Made by a program: the position numbers and the translations under genes. From NCBI GenBank assembly GCA_018304425.1, contig JAGVWE010000005.1, positions 137,145 to 201,144 on the forward strand: 64,000 nucleotides of DNA, written 5' to 3'. Each line of letters begins with the position of its first letter. Position 1 is the first letter of the stretch. The notes beneath the pieces were generated by a model that searched no databases, was not told where the DNA came from, and saw only the letters and a program-made list of their open reading frames with translations. Shown here one piece after another: positions 8,004-53,658 of this stretch. This DNA comes from Candidatus Iainarchaeum sp. Its GTDB lineage: Archaea > Iainarchaeota > Iainarchaeia > Iainarchaeales > UBA10219.

Positions 8004-8103
8004 GTGCCATACCCTGTATGGCACTTTTTCGCCAGCCTTTTGTAAAAAGGCTGTGGCATGCCTAGTATGCCACTTTTTCGCCAGCCTTTTGTAAAAAGGC
8101 TGG
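8004..8103 (-). repeat. Two tandem 49-nt copies of hairpin element family B
   Basis: Minus-strand unit: CAGCCTTTTTACAAAAGGCTG, then GCGAAAAA, then GTGCCATAC-nnn-GTATGGCAC. Copies at 8053-8103 and 8004-8053 begin 2 nt after the tRNA-Gly 3' end. Confidence 0.8.
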
Positions 8104-8886: not shown

Positions 8887-9212
8887 AACCGCCCCTTCGG
8901 GAAATCGAGGCCGAAGAGTTGGTCAAGCAATTGAAGTCCAAGAAGAGGCCGGTGGTGTTGGACGTGCGTTCCGTGGATGAATTCCTCGTGGACCACTTGG
9001 AGGGCGCGGTGCACGTGCCCGTGCAGGAACTGCAGGCCCGTGCCGGGGAGCTGGCGGCCTTCAAGGGCAAGGCCATGGTATGCGTGTGCGAGCACGGCCA
9101 GCGGAGCAGCATGGCGGCCGCCATCCTCTCCTGGATGGGCTTCCAGGGCGTGCAAAGCCTCCAAGGCGGCCTCGCAGAATGGCGGGAAAAGGGGCATAAG
9201 ACGGTTAAATGA
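8883..9212 (+). CDS. Single-domain rhodanese (sulfurtransferase)
   Basis: Rhodanese fold with active-site loop CEHGQRS. Start placed at GTG 8883, overlapping the nth stop (GTGA). The longer ORF from 8736 would lie inside nth. Confidence 0.8.
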   Translation: MKPPLREIEAEELVKQLKSKKRPVVLDVRSVDEFLVDHLEGAVHVPVQELQARAGELAAFKGKAMVCVCEHGQRSSMAAAILSWMGFQGVQSLQGGLAEWREKGHKTVK

Positions 9213-12774: not shown

Positions 12775-12816
12775 AAAAAACGCCGGAAAAGCCGGAAAAA
12801 GGCGAAAAAAAAGGAG
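12775..12816 (-). terminator. Oligo-T terminator cluster after tRNA-Leu
   Basis: The minus strand reads T8, T5, T4 and T6 tracts within 42 nt, starting 5 nt after the tRNA 3' end. Oligo-T is the archaeal termination signal. Confidence 0.6.
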
Positions 12817-12899
12817 TGCGGGAGGGCGGATTCGAACCGCCGTAGCCGCTAGGGCGCGGGCCCTCAACCCGGTGTCGTTGGCCGCTTGACTACTCCCGC
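12817..12899 (-). tRNA. tRNA-Leu (anticodon GAG), type II with long variable arm
   Basis: Acceptor GCGGGAG/CTCCCGC, anticodon loop TTGAGGG, long variable arm, T arm GGCGG-TTCGAAT-CCGCC, discriminator A. One C-C mismatch at 27:43. Confidence 0.85.
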
Positions 12900-12961
12900 A
12901 ACTGACGAGGCGTCAGTTGACACCGCATACGTCGTCCCATCTGCGATGGGACATAAATATA
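12900..12961 (-). repeat. Family A element, short form, 5' of tRNA-Leu
   Basis: Minus strand: TATATTTAT, GTCCCATC-GCA-GATGGGAC, GACGTATGCGGTG, AACTGACG-CCT-CGTCAGTT. The last stem abuts tRNA nt +1. Near-identical architecture at 28838-28899. Confidence 0.75.
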
Positions 12962-15215: not shown

Positions 15216-15394
15216 GCGGAGGTGGCAGAGTGGTCTAATGCGCCAGCCTGGAAAGGCCTTGAACCCTGTAAGGGTTTACAAAAGGCCTGCGAAAAGGGGT
15301 CATACGTTGTATGGCCCTGCCTGATAAGGCCGCAGGAAGGTTCCAGCGAGCTGGTTTCCGCAAGGAAGCACGAGTTCGAATCTCGTCCTCCGCG
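15216..15394 (+). tRNA. tRNA-Ser (anticodon GGA) with a 95-nt intron at the canonical 37/38 position (about 15254-15348)
   Basis: Exons fold as a type II tRNA: acceptor GCGGAGG/CCTCCGC, anticodon stem CCAGC...GCTGG, loop CTGGAA+A, variable arm TTCC-GCAA-GGAA, T arm ACGAG-TTCGAAT-CTCGT. Intron 3' TTCC pairs with GGAA of the anticodon loop, and AAGG with intron CCTT, giving a bulge-helix-bulge. Confidence 0.85.
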
Positions 15395-17927: not shown

Positions 17928-17949
17928 GACCATTACCTGCAGCAAAGCC

Positions 17950-18023
17950 TATTTATGTCCCATCGAGCCCTTCAGGCGAGATGGGACGACGTATCGTGTG
18001 CAGCCGCCACCTTCAGGCGGCTA
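17950..18023 (+). repeat. Family A element, long form, between the rpe start and the tRNA-Ala 3' end
   Basis: TATTTAT, GTCCCATC-(15-nt loop)-GATGGGAC, GACGTAT, CGTGTG, AGCCGCC-ACCTTCA-GGCGGCT. It ends 1 nt from the tRNA-Ala discriminator. Sister copy at 52389-52466. Confidence 0.75.
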
Positions 18024-18095
18024 TGGACTGGCGGGGAATCGAACCCCGAGTCTCCGCGTTGCGAACGCGGCGTCTTACCATTCGACTACCAGCCC
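18024..18095 (-). tRNA. tRNA-Ala (anticodon CGC)
   Basis: Acceptor GGGCTGG/CCAGTCC with the G3:U70 alanine identity pair, anticodon arm CCGCG-TTCGCAA-CGCGG, T arm CGGGG-TTCGATT-CCCCG, discriminator A. Confidence 0.9.
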
Positions 18096-18097
18096 AA

Positions 18098-18286
18098 GGG
18101 CTTTTTACAAAAGCCCTGCGAAAAGGTGCCATTCTCACGAATGGCACGGCCTTTTTACAAAGGGTTTGCGACCTTGTCTCCCCCTGGGAGACGAGGCCCC
18201 GAAGACAAAGTCTTCGGGGAAATGCCCTGTGCATTGCACAGGGCTGGCTCGGCCTTTCGGCCTCGCATCTGGGCAGCCGTTGCCCA
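18098..18286 (+). other. Array of eight consecutive hairpins; the first units belong to family B
   Basis: Hairpins, in order:
- GGGCTTTT-TACA-AAAGCCC, then linker TGCGAAAAG
- GTGCCATTC-TCAC-GAATGGCAC
- GGCCTTT-TTACA-AAGGGTT, which needs G-U pairs and so folds on the plus strand only
- TTGTCTCCC-CCT-GGGAGACGA
- CCCCGAAGAC-AAA-GTCTTCGGGG
- GCCCTGTGCA/TGCACAGGGC
- GGCC-TTTC-GGCC
- TGGGCA-GCCGT-TGCCCA. Confidence 0.7.
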
Positions 18287-27648: not shown

Positions 27649-28767
27649 ATGGCTGGCCTGAAACTGGGAAGCGTTTTCGGCATTGGCGTCGAACTGCACC
27701 CCACCTTCGTGTGGCTGTTTGCAGCGCTCGCCGTGTTCCTGCTGGTCTTTGACGCCGCGAGTTTCGTGCCCAGCATGGTCATGCTGGTCTTCCTCTTCGT
27801 CAGCGTGTTCGTCCACGAGTTGTTCCACTCCCTGGTCGCCTTGTCCAAGCACGTGCGCGTGGAAAAAATCGTGTTGCTGCCGATTGGCGGCATCTCCATG
27901 GCCGAGGAAATGCCTGAAAAGCCGTTGGACGAGTTCCTGGTGGCCATCGCCGGGCCGTTGTTCAATTTCCTGGTCGTGTTCCTCATCCTCTTCCTGGTAG
28001 CAGTGGTGCCCGGCCTGCCGTGGCCGCACGCGTTGTTCTCCGGCCAAGCCGATTACGCCCTGGTCGAGGAAGCCATGCTGGCCTATCCCCTCTTCGCCTT
28101 GCTGTGGGTGAACCTGATGCTGGGCGCGTTCAATCTCTTCGTGCCCGCGCTGCCCATGGACGGGGGAAGGGTGTTGCGCGCGCTCCTCTCCATGGTCATG
28201 GGCCACGCCAAGGCCACCGCGCTTGCCTCCAAGATTAGCCTGGGCTTTGCTTTCCTGATGGCGTTGCTGGGCTTGCTGGGCGGCAGCCTCATGCTGGTCG
28301 TCATCGCGGTGTTCCTCTACTTTGGCGCCACCTATGAACGCGACCTCACGGCCATGAAGGAAACCATTCGCGGCGCGGACTACGGGAAAATCGTGTCGAA
28401 AAAGTTTTCCGCCGTGGACGAGGGCATGCGGTTCGAGGACGCGCTCAAGGCCATGGCCGAAAAAAACACGGGCCTGCTCCTCGTGAAAGGCGGCACGGGC
28501 ATTGGCTACCTCTCGACCGATGACTTGCTGGCCGTGGAGAAATCCAAGCGCCTGGGCGCCTTGACCGTTGGCCAACTGGCAAAGCGGCTGCCGGTCTTCG
28601 AAGCCGGAACCCCGGCCGAGAAGCTCATGGGCTTCTTCGCCTCCAAGGGCGTGCCCGTGGTCGGCATTTCCAGGGGCAAAAAGCTGTCCGGCCTCCTCTT
28701 CCAAGCCGATTTGGACGCCCTCTACCAATTGACAAAGTTGAAAAAGAAGTTCGATTTACAGTATTGA
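27649..28767 (+). CDS. Site-2 protease family (M50) zinc metalloprotease with a C-terminal CBS pair
   Basis: HELFHSLVA (HExxH) in a TM helix, NLFVPALPMDGGRVLRA (the second metal-ligand motif), then two CBS-like repeats. Confidence 0.88.
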   Translation: MAGLKLGSVFGIGVELHPTFVWLFAALAVFLLVFDAASFVPSMVMLVFLFVSVFVHELFHSLVALSKHVRVEKIVLLPIGGISMAEEMPEKPLDEFLVAIAGPLFNFLVVFLILFLVAVVPGLPWPHALFSGQADYALVEEAMLAYPLFALLWVNLMLGAFNLFVPALPMDGGRVLRALLSMVMGHAKATALASKISLGFAFLMALLGLLGGSLMLVVIAVFLYFGATYERDLTAMKETIRGADYGKIVSKKFSAVDEGMRFEDALKAMAEKNTGLLLVKGGTGIGYLSTDDLLAVEKSKRLGALTVGQLAKRLPVFEAGTPAEKLMGFFASKGVPVVGISRGKKLSGLLFQADLDALYQLTKLKKKFDLQY

Positions 28768-28837
28768 CGGCGACGGCCGGTGAAAGCTGGCCTTTTCCCC
28801 GGAGCAAGAGCGAAGGGGCAGGAAGCGTGGTTGGCGG

Positions 28838-28899
28838 CATATTTATGTCCCGCCGCAGGCGGGACGACGTATGCGGTGCCGGCTGACGCCTCGTCAGCC
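28838..28899 (+). repeat. Family A element, short form, 5' of tRNA-Ser(CGA)
   Basis: CATATTTAT, GTCCCGCC-GCA-GGCGGGAC, GACGTATGCGGTG, CGGCTGACG-CCT-CGTCAGCC(G). The final G of the second stem is tRNA nt +1. Confidence 0.75.
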
Positions 28900-28984
28900 G
28901 CGGAGATGGCGGAATCTGGTAAACGCACTCGCCTCGAGAGCGAGAGCCCGCAAGGGCGCGTGGGTTCAAATCCCACTCTCCGCG
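28900..28984 (+). tRNA. tRNA-Ser (anticodon CGA), type II
   Basis: Acceptor GCGGAGA/TCTCCGC, anticodon arm CTCGC-CTCGAGA-GCGAG, long variable arm, T arm GTGGG-TTCAAAT-CCCAC, discriminator G, followed by CTTTTT. Confidence 0.9.
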
Positions 28985-29041
28985 CTTTTTCCTGCCTTTG
29001 GCTGGAAACAATTAAATAGTTTGAGAGGCATAGGTAAATAC

Positions 29042-52388: not shown

Positions 52389-52466
52389 CAAATATTACCG
52401 CCCCATCGAACCCCTTTGGGGCAAGATGGGGCACGTATAGCGCGCAGCCGCCGCTTTCGTGCGGCT
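52389..52466 (+). repeat. Family A element, long form, between the ftsZ stop and the secE start
   Basis: AAATATTAC, GCCCCATC-(17-nt loop containing CCCC-TTT-GGGG)-GATGGGGC, ACGTAT, AGCGCG, AGCCGC-CGCTTTCGT-GCGGCT. The last stem overlaps the ftsZ stop codon. The AT box lies 20 nt from the secE ATG on the other strand. Confidence 0.7.
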
Positions 52467-53658
52467 ACCCGGTGAACTCAATGCCCAGGTCAAGCGGTCC
52501 CTTGGGGACCTTCAACTCGCCTTTCTCGGCGTCGAATTCCTCGACGTTGTCCAGGTAGGGAAACCTTCCCCCGGCGATGACGACCATGGCCTGGATCTGG
52601 TTCCTGGGAATGTTTTCGTCGATCATGGCGCCCCAGATGATGTGCGCGTTGGGGTTGATTTTGGCCGAGACCGCTTCCACGATCATTTCGGCCTCGCGCA
52701 GGGTCATGTCGGTTCCGCCCACCACGTTGACCAGGGCCCGGTTGGCGCCGGAAATGTCGACGTCCAACAGGGGTGAGGTCAACGCGTTTTCAACGGCTTC
52801 CAAAGCCCTTGAATCCGAGGCCTTCTCGCTCCTGGACTCGCCCAAGCCAATCATGGCCGCTCCCCCGTTGTGGAGGATGGTGCGCAGGTCCGCGAAGTCG
52901 AGGTTGATGAGGCCTGGCTTGGTGACCATTTCGGTGATGCCCTTGACGGCGTTGGTCAGCACCTCGTCCGCGACCTTGAACGCGGTGTTCAACGGCAGGT
53001 CCGGCGCAATCTCGAGTATCTTGTCGTTGGGAATGACGATGACCGTGTCCGCGTTCTTGCGGAGCCTGGCCAGTCCCTGGAGGGCGTGCTCCATGCGAGT
53101 CCTGCCTTCCACCGTGAACGGCAGGGTGACGACTCCAATTGTGAGCGCCTTGACTTCGGACGCGATTTCCGCGATGATGGGTGCAGCCCCGGTTCCCGTG
53201 CCGCCGCCCATTCCACACGTTATGAAGATGAGGTCGGAGTCCGCGAAGGTCTCGATGAGTTCGTCCAGCGATTCCCGCGCCGCGGCTTCTCCAACCGTTG
53301 GGTCGGAGCCCGAGCCCAGACCTCTGGTCAGCTTGCGGCCGATGAGGACTTTCCGGTCAGCGGCCACCTTCAACAGGTCCTGGGCGTCCGTGTTAATGGC
53401 GTAGGTTTCCGCGCCAATGATGCCGACTTCGCTCATGCGGTTAATCGTGTTGCAGCCGCCTCCCCCGCAGCCCACCACTCTAATGCGGGCCTGGGCTTTT
53501 TCCAGCAACTCGATGAGGTCCTCTTCCTTGTAATTGGTCTTGGCCTTGGGCTTGCCCTTGACCGCGTCGATTTTGTCCTTCAATTTGTCCATTTTCTTCT
53601 CAGCCTCGATGCGTTTAACGGCCTTGTTCACCAGCGAAGTGTCCTTGTCCAGTATCAC
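52465..53658 (-). CDS. ftsZ: Cell division GTPase FtsZ
   Basis: Tubulin signature GGGTGTGAAP; NTDAQDL; the T7 loop region. Confidence 0.95.
   Translation of the reverse strand: MILDKDTSLVNKAVKRIEAEKKMDKLKDKIDAVKGKPKAKTNYKEEDLIELLEKAQARIRVVGCGGGGCNTINRMSEVGIIGAETYAINTDAQDLLKVAADRKVLIGRKLTRGLGSGSDPTVGEAAARESLDELIETFADSDLIFITCGMGGGTGTGAAPIIAEIASEVKALTIGVVTLPFTVEGRTRMEHALQGLARLRKNADTVIVIPNDKILEIAPDLPLNTAFKVADEVLTNAVKGITEMVTKPGLINLDFADLRTILHNGGAAMIGLGESRSEKASDSRALEAVENALTSPLLDVDISGANRALVNVVGGTDMTLREAEMIVEAVSAKINPNAHIIWGAMIDENIPRNQIQAMVVIAGGRFPYLDNVEEFDAEKGELKVPKGPLDLGIEFTG

Follow-up and report, generated by a model that had tools for sequence, protein, structure and literature searches.

A covarying two-hairpin repeat with a putative TATA box at tRNA ends and in short gene gaps of Iainarchaeota

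What is the short structured element that directly precedes 2 tRNA genes in a 64-kb stretch of Candidatus Iainarchaeum sp. DNA (the window, i.e., the whole stretch that was analyzed), and is it a part of these genes or something that has come to lie beside them? According to the initial annotation, an AT box, a hairpin (H1), the linker GACGTATGCGGTG, and a second hairpin (H2) run up to tRNA position +1 at 12900-12961 on the minus strand and at 28838-28899 on the plus strand. This layout is right, and the compensatory stem changes reported between these 2 copies are borne out, with loops, linker, and spacing being identical. The element is a real, covarying, and previously undescribed repeat family, whose unit of 60–75 nt consists of an AT box, H1, a conserved GACGTAT(GCGG) core, and H2. 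It is best filed with dispersed intergenic hairpin repeats or "mobile promoters" and has an unusual affinity for tRNA ends and introns. The best reading, which we favor with some reserve, is a mobile or duplicating promoter-and-hairpin cassette. Judging by the sequence, such a TATA-carrying repeat would most likely give neighboring genes, often tRNAs, a promoter together with a hairpin leader.

Exact occurrences of the 13-mer linker and of the 12-mer GGGACGACGTAT are found at element copies only. A covariance model of the AT box, H1, and linker (R1) scores copies 1 and 2 at E about 1e-12. With filters off, it reports 2 further copies in the window, at 17948-18000(+) with E 1e-6 and at 52391-52444(+) with 8.7 bits and E 9.4; the latter (copy 4) is accepted despite its weak score because the full layout is visible in its sequence. 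An exact-pattern scan of species-representative genomes yields 6 real matches, all from Candidatus Iainarchaeum metagenome-assembled genomes (MAGs), along with 2 chance bacterial ones, and metagenome contigs add 16 more loci (loci from related genomes and metagenome contigs are denoted by L-numbers, e.g., L001 and L008). In all DNA examined, R1 gives 26 distinct strong copies; the window itself has 4 copies, including the weakly scored copy 4 (Table 1). The element proposed in the initial annotation thus has additional copies both in the window and, numbering about 25, in Iainarchaeota MAGs and metagenomes. Viral contigs contain 0 matches to the exact pattern and hence give no sign of a viral attachment site. 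The M50 protease, FtsZ, and HIT proteins of the window have their best matches in Diapherotrites/Iainarchaeota, which places the window in this DPANN phylum. On balance, the family appears to be a lineage-specific, insertion-prone dispersed repeat of Iainarchaeota (Diapherotrites, DPANN).

Regarding known families, the earlier statement that the element is neither a C/D nor an H/ACA RNA holds: gathering-threshold Rfam scans of the window and 22 loci give tRNAs only, with no other Rfam family, and E-value scans around copies 1 and 4 return nothing credible. No description of the element was found in the literature on Iainarchaeota tRNAs, split tRNAs of DPANN archaea, and RNase P in DPANN. Several copies are located within 50–500 nt of contig ends (L009, L023, L016, and L004), which fits metagenome assemblies broken at repeats, and copy number per MAG is therefore probably underestimated.

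Table 1: Coordinates of the 4 element copies in the window and of the tRNA gene next to copy 1
Feature	Coordinates	Strand	Remarks
Copy 1, AT box TATATTTAT, putative TATA box	12961-12953	-	Resembles AT-rich boxes 21–23 nt upstream of window ATGs
Copy 1, hairpin H1, GTCCCATC-GCA-GATGGGAC	12952-12934	-	Pairing, covariation, fold
Copy 1, conserved linker GACGTATGCGGTG	12933-12921	-	Followed by TC before H2
Copy 1, hairpin H2, AACTGACG-CCT-CGTCAGTT	12918-12900	-	Last base is tRNA position -1
tRNA-Leu(GAG)	12816-12899	-	Oligo-T runs after its 3' end
Copy 2, tRNA-sense	28838-28899	+	AT box CATATTTAT 28838-28846; H1 GTCCCGCC-GCA-GGCGGGAC 28847-28865; linker as in copy 1, 28866-28878; H2 CGGCTGACG-CCT-CGTCAGCC(G) 28880-28899
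Copy 3, long H1, inverted relative to its neighbors	17948-18022	+	AT box 17948-17956; H1 17957-17987; linker GACGTATCGTGTG 17988-18000; H2 18002-18022
Copy 4, diverged, long H1, inverted, without a nearby tRNA	52390-52466	+	AT box AAATATTACC 52390-52399; H1 GCCCCATC...GATGGGGC 52400-52432; linker ACGTATAGCGCG 52433-52444; H2 52445-52466

Folded as RNA, the 4 window copies have z-scores of −3.0 to −4.3 relative to shuffled sequence, and the short copies 1 and 2 fold better than shuffled sequence on the opposite strand, too. In H1, 97.1% of cells are paired across the 26 copies. The number of double-change cells in H1 is 21, compared with 6.8 ± 2.4 in shuffles (0 of 500 reach the observed value) and 0–2 in slid registers. 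This covariation belongs to the 3 inner pairs, and at positions 6–8 there are 8 distinct fully complementary variants and 3 G.T wobbles, all on the AT-box-first strand, with no A.C. The outer 5 pairs (GTCCC/GGGAC) are invariant in all 26 copies, which the search pattern in part dictates. As for H2, more than 10 different and unrelated complementary stems occur, and its closing pair can take in tRNA G+1, a detail that goes beyond the initial annotation. With so many compensatory changes within and between genomes, the earlier view that both hairpins are kept as structure stands.

In its long forms, H1 contains an additional inner stem-loop with 5'-GA...GA-3' (or GA...GAA) on its flanks, so that in copy 3, for example, H1 comprises an outer stem, GA/GA, and an inner stem-loop. 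Being non-palindromic, the GA...GA pair is interpretable only as a single-strand tandem G.A motif, and its strand specificity suggests that the AT-box-first strand occurs single-stranded. Together with H1 covariation, this pair implies a single-stranded role of H1, either as RNA produced by read-through or as single-stranded DNA. In addition, pairing is possible between ATAT of the AT box and GTAT of the core and is extensive in L026, so that the entire unit may fold into a single structure. Two known motifs were considered and rejected: CUGA of a C/D box RNA is present in H2 but without a UGAUGA C box, and GA/GA of the long H1 has no 3-nt bulge, so that it is classed as a tandem G.A internal loop instead of a k-turn.

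Copies occupy gaps between same-strand genes in either orientation. About 11 sense copies immediately precede tRNAs of diverse identity, the linker being 18–21 nt from +1 (window copies 1 and 2; L001, L022, L023, L024, L025, and L026; the tRNA-proximal copies of L008 and L018; and a partial second copy of L021). Copy 2, for instance, starts 70 nt past the M50 protease stop codon and runs up to tRNA-Ser(CGA) at 28900-28985. The element is found 5' of only 2 of the 6 tRNAs in the window. Inverted copies with H2 located 1–2 nt past a tRNA 3' end are represented by window copy 3, which adjoins tRNA-Ala(CGC) (minus strand, 18024-18096), L016, L009/L014, and one of the L008 copies. Inverted copies with H2 on a stop codon are window copy 4, overlapping the TAG of ftsZ (52465-52467, minus strand), and the second L018 copy. 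Copies upstream of protein genes are also found (L003/L005, L011, L012/L017, and L013); those of L011 and L012/L017 precede genes that have their own TATA box.

Some copies are located inside tRNA genes. The tRNA-Met gene of L008 has a diverged inverted copy in its intron, a sense copy 5', and an inverted copy 3', and a third, inverted copy at this locus abuts a degenerate duplicate of the tRNA-Met 3' end (about 1085-1110). The 135-nt intron of tRNA-Cys in L004 consists of a full copy that is inverted and, after it, a partial copy in the sense orientation, which keeps the AT box, its spacing to the linker, the linker, and H2, and lacks the H1 palindrome. The flank TTCAAATCCGCC... of L003 was also considered as a duplicated tRNA 3' end; it is actually the reverse complement of a protein N-terminus. 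Several copies are adjoined by another motif, GCGGTAAT(A/G)CT(G/T)A... (flanks of L009, L014, L019, L024, L004, and L022), which is present in the tRNA intron of L022 as well.

Comparison with relatives shows that the element comes and goes. The gap between ftsZ and secE is 94 nt long with the element in the window, and 20, 21, and 55 nt long in L032 (FtsZ 92% identical), L033, and L034, respectively, where the site of copy 4 is empty. The 20 nt before the secE ATG are still alignable, and the 73-nt element stands exactly between the ftsZ stop codon and this spacer, bringing an AT box where L032 has none. Between the HIT gene and tRNA-Leu(GAG), 2 sister assemblies (L035 and L036) have a tRNA identical to that of the window, preceded by 30 nt without the element; copy 1 is therefore dispensable for this tRNA. 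L032, L035, and L025 come from one assembly. With 4 copies in the 64 kb of the window, 26 distinct copies in all DNA examined, and empty sites in L032–L034 and L035, the family combines multiple copies with presence/absence polymorphism, as miniature inverted-repeat transposable elements (MITEs) do.

At the locus between M50 and tRNA-Ser(CGA), the element is kept in L025, with the AT box lost, H1 GCCCCATC...GATGGGGC, and an interrupted H2. L026, which has 48% protein identity and belongs to an AT-rich genome, shows TATATTAATA, ACCTATTTC-GAACACAGTGA-GAAATAGGT, TGATGTATACCGG, ..., and tRNA-Ser at the same locus. Its H1 stem has changed in sequence with pairing and the GA/GA pair retained; since R1 scores this copy weakly (11.9 bits), its homology rests on synteny and layout. 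The tRNA-Ser orthologues of L028 and L030 have no element, and the L030 tRNA starts 5 nt past the stop codon. More generally, some tRNAs of relatives are located 5–30 nt past the upstream stop codon with no promoter box between (L030 11164-11260 and L035 1937-2050), which implies mRNA-tRNA co-transcripts cut by tRNA-processing enzymes.

Rearrangements are associated with the repeat, too. L016 joins the M50 flank of copy 2 (window 28767-28899) to the inverted tRNA-Ala flank of copy 3 (17948-18096), whereas in the window M50 is followed by the element and tRNA-Ser, with tRNA-Ala elsewhere, which places the breakpoint inside the element. In L003, a 32-bp direct repeat flanks the copy. Copies from the same genome are more alike than orthologues (copy 2 is nearer to copy 1 than to the L025 copy), which indicates recent spread or gene conversion.

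As for what the element may bring to its neighbors, its AT box, (A/T)ATTTAT, resembles CTATTTATGG of the nfo gene in L017, which is separated by 23 nt from the ATG, and the TATATTTT, ATTAAATT, and TATTAAAT boxes upstream of window genes. An AT-rich box precedes the ATG by 21–23 nt in many genes of the window (e.g., 11112, 12729, 15465, 27265, and 35114), which have no Shine-Dalgarno spacing, so that their mRNAs are probably leaderless, seemingly as a rule in this genome. In the short tRNA-proximal copies, 24 nt are counted from the AT box to the A of ATGC, which in copy 1 is part of the linker and would be the predicted transcription start. This arrangement matches the classical archaeal box A/box B pattern, which in methanogen stable-RNA promoters is TTTATATA-N-ATGC. 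In inverted copies, the AT box is located 21 nt before the secE ATG (52368, minus strand) for copy 4 and 15 or 21 nt before 2 candidate rpe ATGs (17933 and 17927) for copy 3, where it reads ATAAATAG on the minus strand; in L003/L005 and L013, it precedes gene starts by 16–19 nt. As the initial annotation proposed, H1 of the short form occupies the TATA-to-start interval. No clear purine-rich B recognition element is seen on either side of the AT box. A promoter further upstream, which would place H1 in the RNA, was rejected: the flanks are unrelated and mostly GC-rich or coding, and only read-through could do so.

In the proposed mechanism, the unit would insert or duplicate into very short same-strand gene gaps, in either orientation, bringing a TATA box with it. 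In the sense orientation, with the AT box distal and H2 at tRNA +1, it would most likely be the tRNA's own promoter, the AT box serving as the TATA box. Transcription would start in GACGT-ATGC about 24 nt past the AT box (near GACGTATGC in tRNA-proximal copies), and the resulting leader of ~30 nt, AUGCGGUG plus H2, would then be removed by RNase P, whose ribonucleoprotein form is reported to be near-universal in Archaea (PMC6380272). RNA that reads through from the preceding gene would contain the unit in full. Where the unit is inverted, its AT box, which lies about 21 nt before the start codon of a probably leaderless gene (rpe or secE), would supply the TATA box for this gene. Both hairpins would then belong to the 3' end of the preceding gene or tRNA, where they may contribute to the stability of the upstream RNA.

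Several points weigh against such a cassette. Long-H1 copies before tRNAs (L018, L022, and L023) have 33–36 nt between the AT box and ATGC, so the GACGTAT core cannot simply be an initiator, and L025 retains H1, linker, and H2 before tRNA-Ser yet has no AT box. H1 covariation and the GA...GA pair, kept even in the distant L026 copy, are unexplained by a double-stranded promoter. Preservation of the element between M50 and tRNA-Ser down to 48% identity suggests that selection acts at this locus and that spread is not purely selfish. Since TTATGTCCC and GGGACGACGTAT were fixed in the retrieval pattern, conservation of these blocks is partly ascertainment. The terminal inverted repeats and fixed target duplication of MITEs are missing, since the AT box and H2 ends are unrelated; copy 4 has no target duplication, no TA duplication is seen, and only L003 has a flanking repeat, of 32 bp. 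No transposase, integrase, or reverse transcriptase is linked to the element in the genome fragments analyzed, in which no transposase search was made. The word "mobile" accordingly refers to presence/absence and dispersal only, and promoter use and direction are deduced from spacing.

A first alternative is a dedicated pre-tRNA 5' leader, with H1 and H2 as RNA structures by which RNase P cleavage would be guided or modulated, or from which a stable small RNA would derive. In about 10 copies, H2 stops exactly at tRNA -1/+1 with uniform spacing, the stems covary, G.U wobbles and the GA/GA motif are on the tRNA-sense strand, and the layout is kept between M50 and tRNA-Ser in L025 and L026. Also, no oligo-T stands between the upstream gene and the element, so read-through RNA would contain both hairpins. 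However, the identical tRNA-Leu(GAG) of a close relative and the tRNA-Ser orthologues of L028 and L030 do without the element, 4 of the 6 window tRNAs have none 5', and about half of all copies are inverted, intronic, or not beside a tRNA. Transcription from the AT box would also leave H1 out of the RNA. The initial annotation's idea of a tRNA-specific leader or RNase P processing determinant is thus not supported, given the copies found inverted 3' of tRNA-Ala, between ftsZ and secE, at protein genes, and in tRNA introns, together with the absence at the orthologous tRNA-Leu(GAG), and we regard a dedicated leader as improbable.

A further RNA-level explanation takes the inverted 3' copies into account. 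A 5' copy and an inverted 3' copy would pair via linker and H2 as a "zipper", forming a processing stem around a whole tRNA or joining a 5' half to a 3' half, as in the split tRNAs of Nanoarchaeum and in "recently split" tRNAs. The 5' and inverted 3' copies of the L008 tRNA-Met are indeed predicted to pair in a long helix that continues the acceptor stem, and the intron copies of the L004 tRNA-Cys pair as well, with the partial copy having its own AT box at promoter spacing, which mirrors the intron-borne promoter of Aeropyrum pernix tRNA-Asp (PMC3218864). As the linker is invariant, every trailer could pair with every leader. Nevertheless, tRNA-Leu and tRNA-Ser of the window have oligo-T terminators and no trailer copy, tRNA-Ala has a trailer copy only, and there is no tRNA close to copy 4 or to several copies in related loci. 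Separately encoded tRNA halves were not seen, and the predicted minimum-energy folds of L004 and L008 show no canonical bulge-helix-bulge at the junctions. Such pairing is attractive for L004 and L008 but improbable on the whole, about as much so as a dedicated leader.

Regarding the way in which the cassette would move, the unit may be a non-autonomous element transferred as single-stranded DNA, IS200/IS605-derived or similar to repetitive extragenic palindromic (REP) sequences and their REP-associated tyrosine transposases (RAYTs), with H1 and H2 recognized by an HUH/Y1 transposase encoded elsewhere in the genome. Two hairpins near the ends without terminal inverted repeats, the missing target duplication at copy 4, the insertion polymorphism, and strand-specific non-Watson-Crick features that follow element polarity whatever the direction of neighboring genes all agree with this route. 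At the same time, H1 and H2 are unrelated in sequence, whereas the end hairpins of IS200/IS605 resemble each other, and the L003 copy has its 32-bp flanking repeat. Neither a conserved target sequence nor a tetranucleotide was found beside the element, including next to the AT box, and nothing supports an enzyme, with no TnpA or RAYT search made. Transfer as single-stranded DNA seems slightly less probable still than the 2 RNA-level explanations. Finally, an operator in which a repressor binds GTCCC-N9-GGGAC as a dimer and co-regulates stable-RNA and housekeeping promoters is the least likely of these explanations: all 26 copies share the same outer 5 bp (in part owing to the search pattern) and in short copies the palindrome spans about -22 to -4 of the predicted start, a region commonly bound by archaeal repressors, but the inner stem covaries instead of being conserved, even within one genome (ATC/GAT versus GCC/GGC), H1 length varies between 18 and 33 nt, the GA...GA pair does not form a palindrome, and inverted copies put the palindrome upstream of the TATA box.

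Because the H2 end falls 0–2 nt from mature 5' and 3' termini of tRNAs, one may also consider that the promoter-and-hairpin cassette seeks tRNA ends, possibly via an RNA or single-stranded DNA intermediate, and in this way builds long introns, leader-trailer stems, and incipient split tRNAs in these DPANN archaea. This idea is speculative and rather unlikely. If it is true, each fragment would gain a promoter and a universal complementary "zipper" GACGTATGCGG, giving a live example of the origin of fragmented tRNA genes.

A second repeat family is tied to tRNA genes, too. It is a near-palindrome, GCCTTTTGTAAAAAGGC, often followed by TGCGAAAAGG, with 6 matches compared with 0.35 expected by chance. 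In the window it is located at 8035-8051, 8084-8100, 18099-18115, 18149-18165, and about 15270-15300, i.e., with 2 copies past the 3' end of tRNA-Gly, 2 before the 5' end of tRNA-Ala, and also within the tRNA-Ser(GGA) intron; L013, L016, and L018 also have it. In L018 (9118-9290), the 3' end of a tRNA (9118-9201) recurs almost exactly, over 21 nt (GTTCGGATCCTGCCCCGTGCA), 60 nt downstream of this tRNA; the duplicate stands beside a GCCTTTTGTAAAAAGGC palindrome, an arrangement reminiscent of an integration footprint. The tRNA-Ser(GGA) gene, with its intron of ~100 nt, at 15216-15394(+) is found by Rfam (44.9 bits) and missed by ARAGORN, while tRNA-Leu(GAG) is missed in the whole-window Rfam gathering scan and has 45.5 bits in a local scan.

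If the promoter-and-hairpin cassette is the right reading, an Iainarchaeota repeat delivers a working TATA box and transcript-end hairpins into gene gaps of ~20 nt, and co-transcribed pairs (ftsZ-secE; the HIT gene and tRNA-Leu) would be rewired into separate units. To our knowledge, dispersed promoter-carrying repeats have hardly been described in archaea. The repeat could mark strain-level rearrangements and explain assembly breaks in these MAGs, and the copies in tRNA introns and as complementary leader and trailer bear on the origin of intron-containing and split tRNA genes. For annotation purposes, the element should not be called a tRNA-processing motif. Its interest would grow if a link to tRNA gene fragmentation or a novel mobilization route were demonstrated.

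Among known systems, archaeal stable-RNA promoters have a TATA box (box A) near position -26 and ATGC (box B) at the start, e.g., in tRNA and rRNA genes of Methanococcus, and Nanoarchaeum equitans has fixed-distance tRNA promoters. The element is similar in having a TATA-like box 21–24 nt from ATGC and a near-identical sequence before unrelated tRNAs. Its spacer, however, is a covarying hairpin of variable length, and the element can also be inverted, intronic, or remote from RNA genes, coming and going among close relatives; the other window tRNAs have ordinary boxes implying leaders of about 5–12 nt.

Bacterial REP sequences and bacterial interspersed mosaic elements (BIMEs) are likewise short GC-rich hairpin repeats that are intergenic, occur in both orientations and often just past stop codons, and could cap upstream transcripts. 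In contrast to them, this extragenic and palindromic element is archaeal, carries a TATA box and a conserved single-stranded core, and is strongly tied to tRNA ends and introns; it has 2 different hairpins, no GTAG head, and no RAYT known for it. MITEs and palindrome elements derived from IS200/IS605 share with it the small size, non-coding nature, multiple copies, insertion polymorphism, and subterminal hairpins. Here, however, the hairpins are unlike each other, and there are no terminal inverted repeats, no consistent target duplication, and no identified parent transposase.

Regarding split tRNAs, Nanoarchaeum has separate tRNA halves, and A. pernix tRNA-Asp has a promoter inside a long intron and represents a "recently split" tRNA (PMC3218864). 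Such systems are resembled by the L004 intron with its promoter-like box and GC-rich leader, by the complementary leader and trailer of L008, and by partial duplicates of tRNA 3' ends beside inserted sequence (L008 and L018). What differs here is that one shared repeat family supplies these sequences to many tRNAs and to protein genes, and no truly separated halves were found. In Caldiarchaeum, tRNA disruption is driven by a mobile element that is a 1.8-kb recombinase-encoding unit (PMC3293823), whereas the element described here is a 60-nt repeat.

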